NCBI GenBank assembly: GCA_947625625.1
Contig: CANQPC010000003.1
Location: forward strand, 1,278 to 65,277
Length of the DNA: 64,000 nt
Reading direction: 5' to 3'
DNA from: an uncultured Bacilli bacterium
GTDB taxonomy: Bacteria; Bacillota_I; Bacilli_A; RF39; UBA660
In this document: one piece after another, positions 10,192 through 11,955 of the stretch
How the letters are laid out: every line of letters begins with the position of its first letter
How positions within the stretch are numbered: the first letter of the stretch is position 1
Program-made: the position numbers and the translations under genes
The notes under the pieces: model-generated
The model's input: the letters and a program-made list of their open reading frames with translations, nothing else
Databases searched by the model: none
Told to the model about the DNA's origin: nothing

Positions 10192-10208
10192 ATCCTTTTT
10201 TTTATTTG

Positions 10209-10234
10209 AAAATTATTTCCCGGGAAATAATTTT
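10209..10234. promoter_or_regulatory. NBS-type palindrome 1 (putative Noc/ParB-family binding site)
   Basis: Perfect 26-bp palindrome AAAATTATTTCCCGGGAAATAATTTT, 18 bp after the gyrA stop. It contains the 16-mer TATTTCCCGGGAAATA. Confidence 0.75.
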
Positions 10235-10304
10235 CGTACATTTGTTTGTTTAAATTATAATTATAATTATTTTTAGTGTTGACCTGTTGATAGATTATTT
10301 TTTG

Positions 10305-10367
10305 ATTATTATTATTATTATTATTATTATTATTATTATTATTATTATTATTATTATTATTATTATT
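10305..10367. repeat. (ATT)21 microsatellite
   Basis: 63 bp of uninterrupted ATT. The homologous position in the other two repeat units reads AATAATTATTATC, which is only about 3 ATT units. Confidence 0.95.
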
Positions 10368-10460
10368 ATATTTTAATATTTTGATATGTATTTTTAATAG
10401 TACTGACTTTATTTTTAATATATGGTTTATTTGGGAAATAAATTTTATCTTATTTTAGTA

Positions 10461-10482
10461 AATTATTTCCCGGGAAATAATT
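10461..10482. promoter_or_regulatory. NBS-type palindrome 2
   Basis: Perfect AATTATTTCCCGGGAAATAATT. Confidence 0.75.
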
Positions 10483-10588
10483 TATATCTTAAAATATGTT
10501 TTTGAGGTATTTATTTAGAATAAGGCTATTCATAAATGGTATTTTAAATTAGATATAGTGGCAGTGTGTTTTTGCATTTGCGAATGAG

Positions 10589-10608
10589 ATTATTTCCCGG
10601 GAAATAAT
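10589..10608. promoter_or_regulatory. NBS-type palindrome 3
   Basis: Perfect ATTATTTCCCGGGAAATAAT. Confidence 0.75.
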
Positions 10609-10800
10609 TTGTACCTTAAAATATGTTTTTGAGTGTATTTTTTTATTACCCTGTTGATAAATTATTTTAATAATTATTATCGTGAATATATTTTAATTTT
10701 TTTCCTTTAAAGATGATAGGTATGTATTTTTTAATATTCTTAAGTTTATTTTAGAAAATATGCGATTTGTTTGGGAAATAAATTTTATGTATTTAGAGTA

Positions 10801-10822
10801 AATTATTTCCCGGGAAATAATT
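10801..10822. promoter_or_regulatory. NBS-type palindrome 4
   Basis: Perfect AATTATTTCCCGGGAAATAATT. Confidence 0.75.
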
Positions 10823-10926
10823 TATACCTCAAAATATATTTTTGACGGTATTTTTTGAATATTGCTACTTATAAATATTATTTTAAATTAAATATTTTGG
10901 TAGAGTATTTTTGTATTTGCGAATGG

Positions 10927-10948
10927 AATTATTTCCCGGGAAATAATT
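10927..10948. promoter_or_regulatory. NBS-type palindrome 5
   Basis: Perfect AATTATTTCCCGGGAAATAATT. Confidence 0.75.
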
Positions 10949-11139
10949 TGTACCTTAAAATATGTTTTTGAGTGTATTTTTTTATTACCCTGTTGATAAA
11001 TTATTTTAATAATTATTATCATGAATATATTTTAATATTTTTTCCTTTAAAGAGATGATATGTATTTTTAAATATTACTAACTTTATTTTAGAAAATGTG
11101 CGATTTGTTTGGGAAATAAATTTTATGTTATTTAAAGTA

Positions 11140-11161
11140 AATTATTTCCTGGGAAATAATT
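11140..11161. promoter_or_regulatory. NBS-type palindrome 6 (one C>T change)
   Basis: AATTATTTCCTGGGAAATAATT. Confidence 0.6.
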
Positions 11162-11195
11162 TACATACATTTGTTCGTTTTTAATATTTTACTTA

Positions 11196-11211
11196 TGTTT
11201 CACGTGGAACA
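11196..11211. promoter_or_regulatory. parS site 1
   Basis: TGTTTCACGTGGAACA fits TGTTNCACGTGAAACA-type parS. It sits inside the longer palindrome ACTTATGTTTCACGTGGAACATAAGT. Confidence 0.8.
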
Positions 11212-11321
11212 TAAGTATTTCATTTATAAAATGAATATTTAATAATTATTAATGACCTTACGATATTGTATTAATAGAAAAAATATTATTTAAATATAGT
11301 TTTTAAATAAATATTATTTGA

Positions 11322-11337
11322 TGTTTCACGTGAAACG
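11322..11337. promoter_or_regulatory. parS site 2 (one mismatch)
   Basis: TGTTTCACGTGAAACG. Confidence 0.65.
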
Positions 11338-11379
11338 TGATTAATTGATTTTAAATATTTATTTTTTTAGCATCATACA

Positions 11380-11461
11380 TTTAATAAAATATTATTTAAT
11401 GGAACAAGTCAGAAGTAGAAGCTAGCGTTTTAGCATTTTATTAATGTGTGTATCTTTTTTT
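11380..11461 (+). ncRNA. Diverged SRP-RNA-like paralogue (possible pseudogene or novel small RNA)
   Basis: Aligns with the SRP RNA at 11631-11710. It keeps the 3' arm, the T-run terminator and a TTGATT-17-TAGCAT promoter-like spacing. The apical part reads UCAGA-AGU-AGAA-GCU-AGCGU instead of UCAGG-GGC-GGAA-GCC-AGCAG. Ends are approximate. Confidence 0.4.
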
Positions 11462-11462
11462 A

Positions 11463-11478
11463 TGTTCCACGTGGAACA
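11463..11478. promoter_or_regulatory. parS site 3
   Basis: TGTTCCACGTGGAACA, a perfect palindrome directly after the T-run of the SRP-like RNA copy 1. Confidence 0.8.
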
Positions 11479-11556
11479 GTGATATCGTTTAATTATTAAT
11501 ATTAAGTATAGTATTGGTTTTATTATTATATAGATTTTATGATTTTACTTGTTACA

Positions 11557-11572
11557 TGTTTCACGTGGAACA
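11557..11572. promoter_or_regulatory. parS site 4
   Basis: TGTTTCACGTGGAACA within CATGTTTCACGTGGAACATG. Confidence 0.8.
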
Positions 11573-11594
11573 TGATAGATTACTATTTTAAAAC

Positions 11595-11623
11595 TTGCTT
11601 TTTTTTATTCTTTTTAGTATTAT
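11595..11623 (+). promoter_or_regulatory. Sigma-A-type promoter for SRP RNA
   Basis: TTGCTT, 17 bp spacer, TATTAT. The predicted start is near 11630. Confidence 0.5.
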
Positions 11624-11630
11624 GTATTTG

Positions 11631-11710
11631 ATACAACATTAATTGATGGAACCAAGTCAGGGGCGGAAGCCAGCAGCTTTAACATTTTATTAATGTGTGT
11701 ATCTTTTTTT
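11631..11710 (+). ncRNA. ffs: Small (about 80 nt) signal recognition particle RNA
   Basis: Domain IV signature: helix AAG/CUU, symmetric-loop halves UCAGG and AGCAG, helix GGC/GCC capped by a GGAA tetraloop. Closing helix ACAUUAAU/AUUAAUGU, then a T7 run. No Alu-domain sequence is visible upstream. Ends are approximate. Confidence 0.75.
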
Positions 11711-11711
11711 A

Positions 11712-11727
11712 TGTTCCACGTGAAACA
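11712..11727. promoter_or_regulatory. parS site 5
   Basis: TGTTCCACGTGAAACA, directly after the SRP RNA T-run. Confidence 0.85.
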
Positions 11728-11816
11728 TTGATAATGTTTAATTGTTAAAATTATTTTAATATTAAATCCAATATTGATTTTATTATTATATAAATTTTAT
11801 GATTTTACTTGTTACA

Positions 11817-11832
11817 TGTTTCACGTGAAACA
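11817..11832. promoter_or_regulatory. parS site 6
   Basis: TGTTTCACGTGAAACA within the perfect 20-bp palindrome CATGTTTCACGTGAAACATG. Confidence 0.85.
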
Positions 11833-11860
11833 TGTATGATTATTTTTTTGTTTAATGGTA

Positions 11861-11876
11861 AGTTTCACGTGGAACA
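11861..11876. promoter_or_regulatory. parS site 7 (one mismatch)
   Basis: AGTTTCACGTGGAACA. Confidence 0.65.
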
Positions 11877-11921
11877 TAATATTTTGTTGCTTTTTTGTTG
11901 ATATGTATGTTAATATTTCTA

Positions 11922-11937
11922 TGTTTCACGTGAAACA
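11922..11937. promoter_or_regulatory. parS site 8
   Basis: TGTTTCACGTGAAACA, 18 bp upstream of the tadA start codon. Confidence 0.85.
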
Positions 11938-11955
11938 TTTGTGTGGTGATTTTTA

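Follow-up and report, generated by a model that had tools for sequence, protein, structure and literature searches.

The gyrA-tadA spacer of an uncultured Bacilli bacterium as a probable compact centromere combined with Noc loading sites

A 64,000-nucleotide stretch from an uncultured Bacilli bacterium (assembly GCA_947625625.1, contig CANQPC010000003.1, positions 1,278 to 65,277; hereafter the window) contains a gap of 1764 bp between gyrA (7621-10191, plus strand) and tadA (11956-12381, plus strand), in which binding sites for two paralogous proteins are gathered in two blocks. Six canonical Noc-binding sites (NBS; 10215-11157) are followed by eight canonical parS sites (11196-11937), the targets of ParB. 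Judged from its sequence, this spacer is probably a compact chromosomal centromere, an array at which ParB loads, to which loading sites for Noc are joined and which is renewed by repeated tandem duplication. The identity of the motifs, their excess over chance, their conservation amid turnover and the proximity of NBS to parS are all observed, as described below.

The pair ParB and Noc is a classic example of how, after duplication, a DNA-binding protein can gain a new site and a new job, and in model species the two kinds of site are treated as separate systems. The sites differ at two positions of each half-site, and their consensus sequences have been defined experimentally (PMC7383237). 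The same study assigned the discrimination to four residues, R173/T179/A184/G201 in ParB and Q173/K179/K184/R201 in Noc, and reported that Noc is restricted to Firmicutes (PMC7383237). The host of the window falls within this phylum: its relatives are titled 'uncultured Bacilli', 'Tenericutes' or 'Bacillales' bacterium, and the window contains T-box leaders as well as genes for ComK, SpoVT and SpoIID.

The 14-bp NBS core ATTTCCCGGGAAAT occurs exactly in NBS 1 (10215-10228), NBS 2 (10465-10478), NBS 3 (10592-10605), NBS 4 (10805-10818) and NBS 5 (10931-10944), and with one mismatch in NBS 6 (11144-11157; ATTTCCTGGGAAAT). NBS 1 lies in an extended palindrome (10210-10233) and starts 24 nt past the gyrA stop codon. 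When up to two mismatches are allowed, the whole window yields 10 matches, against 0.33 expected from shuffled sequences. Besides the six in the gap, there are two exact copies in dnaX (13538-13551, in the linker region, and 13619-13632) and a one-mismatch copy at the 3' end of recF (5641-5654), which is exact at the equivalent position in most relatives. All nine exact or one-mismatch sites fall within an 8-kb stretch (5641-13632), and the other 50 kb contain none. The three sites in coding DNA, at the recF C-terminus and twice in the dnaX linker, are always in the frame that reads I-I-S-R-E-I, as if the protein sequence accommodated the DNA motif. They are syntenic in relatives while the flanking bases diverge, including in the dnaX linker, which is poorly conserved. 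Retention at such positions despite divergence of the flanks points to selection at the DNA level. Additional NBS half-sites (GGGAAATAA) are found at 10433, 10773, 11111 and 13639, 13-32 bp from a full NBS; the last of these follows the second dnaX site.

Most of the NBS block is a tandem repeat of a 339-bp unit (10382-11163; 2.3 copies, 88% match by Tandem Repeats Finder). Each unit carries two NBS, one of the half-sites and one DnaA-box-like 9-mer, TGTTGATAA. The flanks of the units differ by about 12%, and the four paired NBS are identical. Between NBS 1 and these repeats lies an (ATT)n microsatellite of about 30 copies (10294-10380). A DnaA-box cluster in the gap was also considered and set aside: TTATCAACA is found once in each 339-bp unit, but the window as a whole has 13 copies, which makes the enrichment unconvincing.

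The parS block begins 38 bp after NBS 6 ends. The 16-mer TGTTTCACGTGAAACA is matched with zero to two mismatches at parS 1 (11196-11211; TGTTTCACGTGGAACA), parS 2 (11322-11337), parS 3 (11463-11478), parS 4 (11557-11572), parS 5 (11712-11727), parS 6 (11817-11832; exact), parS 7 (11861-11876) and parS 8 (11922-11937; exact), a density of eight sites in 742 bp. Even at up to three mismatches, these eight are the only matches in the window, against 0.30 expected. All fit the parS palindrome tGTTNCACGTGAAACa, and most of the variation falls at position 5, known to be degenerate, and at the position symmetric to it. Between the last site and the tadA start codon are 18 nt. A parS placed 16-19 nt before this codon, just 5' of the ribosome-binding site, recurs in the relatives L005 (2552) and L086 (20105), and binding of ParB there might alter expression of tadA-dnaX. 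This block is repetitive as well, with a unit of about 260 bp (11358-11849; 1.9 copies, 82% match by Tandem Repeats Finder) that comprises two parS and a small RNA gene or its remnant.

The RNA gene is ffs, which encodes the bacterial small signal recognition particle RNA (11625-11711, plus strand; Rfam RF00169, 54.9 bits against a gathering score of 40). Its orthologue occupies the equivalent spacer in all seven relatives tested, with scores of 51.7-58.9 bits, and parS 5 directly follows its T-run. The other repeat copy contains a decayed duplicate (about 11376-11462, plus strand), in which mutations have altered the GGAA loop region as well as part of the 5' stem and which has no Rfam match even at E<=10. 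This second copy is a passenger of the duplication that has since decayed, and ffs itself would be a resident gene of the spacer, outside the mechanism proposed here. A short element, ACA(A/T)(A/T)(A/T)TGTT(C/T)G, is present at 10238-10248 and 11163-11173, as well as in L086 (about 19003) and L006 (about 9052). In the window and several relatives, it sits 10-14 nt past the NBS nearest to ffs, and it may be part of the region upstream of the ffs promoter.

These results largely agree with the original prediction, in which the gap was described as a coding-free locus of abutting NBS and parS arrays, each built by its own tandem duplication. Both motif classes were correctly assigned, to Noc and to ParB, and the arrays do abut, 38 bp apart. 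The proposed start of the first parS (11196) was exact; the value given for the last NBS (11140) is the start of its extended palindrome, the 14-mer itself spanning 11144-11157. Duplication was confirmed for both halves, the copies of the parS-bearing unit being spaced 249-260 bp apart. 'Coding-free' applies to proteins, since the longest open reading frame (ORF) within the gap has 44 aa, but not to RNA, on account of ffs. The sole ORF of at least 60 aa that touches the gap (9885-10241, minus strand) is antisense to gyrA.

The two site types form discrete classes. Sites matching xTTYCxCGxGRAAx were counted over 350 kb of DNA from the window and its 16 relatives (17 genomes). Of these sites, 107 belong to the parS class (G1 and A6 in each half-site), 40 to the NBS class (A1 and C6) and two are off-class single-base variants, and no hybrid parS/NBS site was found. 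Two classes without hybrids are as expected from two separate readers and argue against a single relaxed one. We judge it improbable that the NBS palindrome is read by something other than a Noc orthologue, whether one relaxed ParB serving both motifs or an unrelated regulator that acts on ATTTCCCGGGAAAT and controls, say, ffs, tadA or dnaX. Such a reader would fit the finding that no Noc gene was detected in the DNA fetched for the lineage, and several NBS do lie near promoters or gene ends (after gyrA, before ffs and, in the distant locus L026, before tadA). However, the motif is identical to the NBS core of Bacillus subtilis and Staphylococcus aureus Noc (PMC5540599, PMC7383237), NBS also occur within coding regions, and a test of 21 family members showed ParB to be specific for parS and Noc for NBS (PMC7383237). 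Moreover, two more distant Erysipelotrichaceae relatives, L040 (16291-17049) and L048 (18284-19054), encode rsmG-noc-parA-parB 6-8 kb downstream of tadA, and their Noc carries the Noc-type residues Q173, K179 and R201; the family is thus present in neighbouring lineages. Both have two parS upstream of tadA and no NBS within the 17-20 kb fetched per locus.

The spacer was compared with that of relatives obtained from a TadA scan of species-representative genomes, which returned 80 loci. The 16 genomes compared are the species representatives with a TadA at least 55% identical to that of the window, plus L086, which was found via its DnaA (88% identical to the window's). They are gut metagenome-assembled genomes of 25-28% GC (guanine plus cytosine) labelled uncultured Bacilli, Tenericutes or Bacillales, and about 20 kb of each was covered. 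In all 16, the spacer has the order gyrA, zero to two NBS, ffs, four to nine parS, tadA, and 13 have at least one NBS (one or two, after gyrA). The eight parS of the window are typical of this group, and further contigs of the same clade have 5-10. Its six NBS exceed the number in any of the 16, though several metagenome contigs reach 5-7. The suggestion that the spacer is lineage-specific consequently fails in the narrow sense, as parS sites are present in the equivalent spacer of every related genome.

Around this constant order, the sequence turns over. The repeat periods differ by genome (339/260 in the window, and 148, 79, 215/100, 159, 143, 51 and 294 bp elsewhere); the 143-bp repeat has 4.1 copies at 100% identity, and five arrays retain no detectable repeat. 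Between species, the spacers can be aligned only at ffs and the palindromes. Within one species, two contigs (L209 and L210, 19374-20422) are 99.7% identical over 19.8 kb, yet their spacers differ by about 420 bp and hold 10 and 5 parS. In L087 (19100-20830, a long-read assembly), an insertion sequence element encoding a 444-aa transposase and flanked by duplicated aacaaatgttcgctattgctaaaatt lies between the NBS and ffs. Among more distant lineages, L071 has a 127-bp unit, repeated at least 4.3 times, that bears a single NBS and a single parS; ffs and tadA come next. In L026 (1-590), a 43-bp unit with one parS is repeated head to tail 13.7 times, which amounts to as many as 14 parS in 575 bp, and beyond the array lie ffs, a single NBS and tadA. 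As these sequences indicate, the pattern is one of birth and death, in which site-bearing units duplicate, their flanks decay and the sites stay. Because four to nine parS are kept in 16 genomes while repeat periods differ or vanish, the number of sites appears to be favoured over any particular sequence. The original prediction had suggested this for both motifs; it is supported at least for parS, whereas the relatives have zero to two NBS each.

Alternatively, multiplicity could be neutral. In that case, the spacer would simply be prone to slippage and tandem duplication, a single site of each kind would suffice, and all others, above all among the six NBS of the window, would be unselected passengers. 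Several features are compatible with this explanation. A useless ffs copy was co-amplified and then decayed, the gap contains an (ATT)30 microsatellite, and the insertion sequence element is tolerated in one relative. Site copy numbers also range widely, even within one species, zero to two NBS suffice for the 16 related genomes, and several model species need no more than one parS near oriC (PMC7022226). We nevertheless consider neutrality unlikely. At least four parS persist in all 16 relatives even where repeats are fully eroded, so that sites outlive their flanks; the flanks of the 339-bp units differ by about 12%, yet the four paired NBS are identical; and amplification recurs independently in many lineages, always with NBS or parS motifs.

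The failure of the spacers to align also bears on a possible role of the palindromes in RNA, as terminators or processing hairpins near ffs and in the tadA leader, and on the idea that the gap encodes a long non-coding RNA. Two parS were flagged as terminator-like hairpins, one parS lies directly after ffs, and another is 18 nt before the tadA start codon. We regard such RNA-level roles as hardly credible, given that ffs alone scores as an RNA family even at a permissive Rfam threshold, the spacer is unalignable between species outside ffs and the motifs, the hairpins are AT-rich and mostly lack T-runs, and the palindromes are exact protein-binding consensus sites, of which the NBS also occur inside genes. 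Promoter-like matches were likewise no more frequent than in shuffled sequences (26 against 21), and the terminator or RNA reading was rejected, with only two of the parS being terminator-like.

The association of NBS with parS was further surveyed in metagenomes by searching for an exact NBS located 25-55 bp from TGTTYCACGTGRAACA. At least 120 stretches were recovered, against a chance expectation of about 0.01 by a composition-blind estimate, and 80 loci were among the matches listed. In 78 of these 80 listed loci, the sites lie in the gyrA/ffs/tadA/dnaX neighbourhood in DNA of 23-33% GC, adjoined by gyrA, tadA and/or dnaX, with GyrA 52-81% and TadA 37-60% identical to those of the window. 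The two exceptions among the matches listed are L148 (49% GC), in which the sites stand beside a noc-like/parA/parB operon, and L144, which has no recognisable context. NBS and parS thus share the gyrA-tadA spacer across a wide uncultured clade of the gut and rumen. In many loci the two are interleaved and ffs comes last; examples, in which N, P and F denote NBS, parS and ffs, are NPNPNPNPNPNF (L095), PNPNPNPNPF (L090), PNPNPPPNNPPNF (L121) and PNNNNPF (L123). At least two of each motif were present in 53 of the 79 listed loci analysed, L148 being left out. The centres of neighbouring NBS and parS are a median of 57 bp apart (interquartile range 42-70), compared with 116 bp for neighbouring parS. 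These figures derive from about 290 neighbouring NBS-parS pairs in about 100 loci, one pair per locus being forced by the search pattern, which biases the median of 57 bp.

By analogy with model systems, we infer which proteins bind the spacer, their spreading, SMC loading and any coupling between ParB and Noc, and likewise any functional link of segregation with membrane association or division control, as put forward in the original prediction. ParB dimers would load at the parS palindromes as sliding clamps dependent on cytidine triphosphate (CTP) and spread over neighbouring DNA; as in B. subtilis, ParB would then recruit SMC and mark the dnaA-proximal region for segregation. At the six adjoining NBS, the paralogue Noc would nucleate, spread and pull the coated DNA to the membrane. 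Starting from NBS, Noc spreads and carries DNA to the membrane through a weak membrane helix that works only in multimeric complexes (PMC4331003). A preprint describes Noc as a CTPase that nucleates on the 16-bp NBS and then associates with neighbouring DNA (bioRxiv 10.1101/2021.02.11.430593). A few kilobases would thus be both a partition complex and membrane-associated, and with an NBS array beside a parS array, the centromere region would be expected to be strongly membrane-associated. The arrays would arise and be renewed by tandem duplication of any site-bearing unit, after which the flanks drift and the palindromes are retained.

A more specific proposal, which we advance only tentatively and think somewhat doubtful, is that the NBS-parS pair is itself a functional unit at which ParB and Noc co-load, so that the centromere is held at the membrane. 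Under this proposal, membrane attachment might supplement or replace ParA-driven segregation, and each paralogue might bound or trap the sliding clamps of the other. If so, the locus would be a natural attachment of origin or centromere to the membrane made from two paralogous CTP-dependent clamps, and the close spacing (median 57 bp), interleaving and joint persistence amid sequence turnover would reflect selection for co-loading.

Several observations weigh against a centromere joined to Noc loading sites. The presence of ParB and Noc in the lineage of the window is assumed: a six-frame GERRxRA-box search and a Pfam scan of nearly all ORFs of at least 100 aa detected no ParB-family gene in the 64-kb window, and none was found within 10 kb upstream of dnaA in six contigs of related genomes. 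Among the 80 listed metagenome loci, ParB-family ORFs were found only in L148, the unrelated contig of 49% GC. The NBS are absent from the spacer of three of the 16 related genomes, and in the closest relatives, ffs lies between the NBS and the parS array (150-280 bp), so that the two are not paired. The metagenome scan selected for adjacency, and interleaving and short spacing are therefore partly a selection effect. No switch in the sign of the GC skew occurs at dnaA or elsewhere in the window, nor within 10 kb upstream of dnaA in one relative; the skew is strongly positive along the whole window, whose GC content is about 28%. Hence, the term 'origin-proximal' rests on the gene order dnaA-dnaN-recF-gyrBA and a DnaA-box-like cluster at 914-1035 (TTATCAACA three times and TTTTCCACA twice).

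In addition, short-read assemblies can collapse or misjoin repeats of this kind. The species of the window was assembled independently in four ENA metagenome contigs (L001-L004). L003 matches positions 10719-12894 with one mismatch, and L001 and L002 match the right-hand portion of the gap. L004 has one 339-bp unit fewer than the window; as it is a short-read contig with 2.4x coverage, this reflects either assembly collapse or real polymorphism. All four contigs start within repeats, which is typical of assembly breaks induced by repeats.

The original prediction had further speculated that the locus is a dedicated origin-anchoring device for sporulation that replaces RacA/ram. Among the proteins encoded in the window are MreB and relatives of SpoVT, SpoIID and BofA, consistent with a walled organism that may sporulate, and Noc does bring DNA to the membrane (PMC4331003). 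Nonetheless, nothing ties the locus to sporulation, Noc-dependent polar anchoring was not found described in the literature consulted, and the window lacks a ram-like motif. The GC-rich 14-bp ram motif (TGACGCCGGCGTCA) has no match in the window at up to three mismatches. Pfam annotation of the window ORFs suggested no RacA, although no search aimed at RacA was made. The substitution is accordingly without support, and we judge it very improbable. Genes for SpoVT-, SpoIID- and M23-peptidase-like proteins and MreB lie at 22533-23063, 29012-30627 and 31006-31998. The organism is walled, probably rod-shaped and perhaps able to sporulate, despite the label 'Tenericutes' on some of its relatives.

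The RacA/ram system of B. subtilis resembles the gyrA-tadA spacer only in the idea of many origin-proximal sites that tether DNA to the envelope; the motif, GC-rich in ram and absent here, and the protein family are different. A closer formal likeness is found in plasmid centromeres. The sopC centromere of the F plasmid consists of twelve 43-bp repeats arranged head to tail, each with one palindrome for a ParB-family protein, and the repeat of L026 also has a period of 43 bp. In contrast to plasmid centromeres, the arrays described here are chromosomal, consist of canonical chromosomal parS and mix sites for two paralogues. The parS/ParB (Spo0J) system of B. subtilis and the clustered parS of Corynebacterium glutamicum, Pseudomonas aeruginosa and Caulobacter share with them the 16-bp palindrome, the location near dnaA and the multiplicity of sites. 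Compared with those centromeres, the present arrays are much denser, entirely intergenic and made by tandem duplication. In most bacteria, parS sites are clustered within 5-40 kb (PMC8357415); according to that paper, which cites Livny 2007, B. subtilis and other Bacilli scatter them over a wide region. The NBS of B. subtilis and S. aureus have an identical 14-bp core (ATTTCCCGGGAAAT) and are origin-proximal (PMC5540599), a location that gene order suggests for the window as well; the window has nine within 8 kb, six of them in tandem and beside parS, with which NBS are interleaved in other loci. Closely spaced NBS have been engineered as 8xNBS arrays on the plasmids pSG4929 and pDWA117, where they recruited DNA to the membrane in a Noc-dependent manner (PMC4331003). 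Unlike those synthetic, plasmid-borne constructs, the array described here is natural, chromosomal and paired with parS.

The genes around the spacer are arranged in the order dnaA (1157-2518), dnaN, a ComK-family ORF, recF, gyrB, gyrA, the gap, tadA, dnaX, ybaB and recR, which places the parS array 8.7-9.4 kb downstream of the end of dnaA. The products of the flanking genes match the Pfam families DNA_topoisoIV and DNA_gyraseA_C (gyrA) and MafB19-deam and dCMP_cyt_deam_1 (tadA). The ComK-family ORF (3878-4390 in the window, 12773-13228 in L086, 12832-13287 in L209) is present between dnaN and recF in all relatives examined, an interval that holds yaaA in B. subtilis. Upstream of dnaA, the window encodes a DUF87/HerA-like ATPase (1-1157) that runs off its start. 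In relatives (positions 1-10000 of L086, L209 and L211), this region contains the DUF87 ATPase, a sulfatase-family gene, a glycosyltransferase, fpg and polA, without the usual block from rpmH to parB or rpmH-rnpA; six contigs of related genomes share this order from polA and fpg through the DUF87 gene to dnaA. Farther along the window, T-box leaders precede a dUTPase and metG-like gene pair (24789-24986, plus strand) and an asparaginyl/aspartyl-type tRNA synthetase gene (34596-34822, minus strand).

Clustered parS and origin-proximal NBS are both known; what is new is their conserved joint arrangement, so far only in uncultured gut and rumen Bacilli-like genomes. The literature consulted yielded no account of NBS arrays in nature, nor of a conserved locus where NBS are paired or interleaved with parS. 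In the spacers described here, NBS and parS keep company at a single fixed place, in many cases alternating every 40-70 bp, while their surroundings turn over. For these uncultured genomes, the locus offers a practical centromere marker, and it is also a spot where short-read assemblies break. Because its motifs are canonical, B. subtilis could serve as a host for direct tests of it. Should the pairing prove functional, it would provide a natural system for studying how two sliding-clamp paralogues share or partition DNA, and it would bear on whether Noc tethers the centromere to the membrane and on how site number is maintained by duplication and decay.

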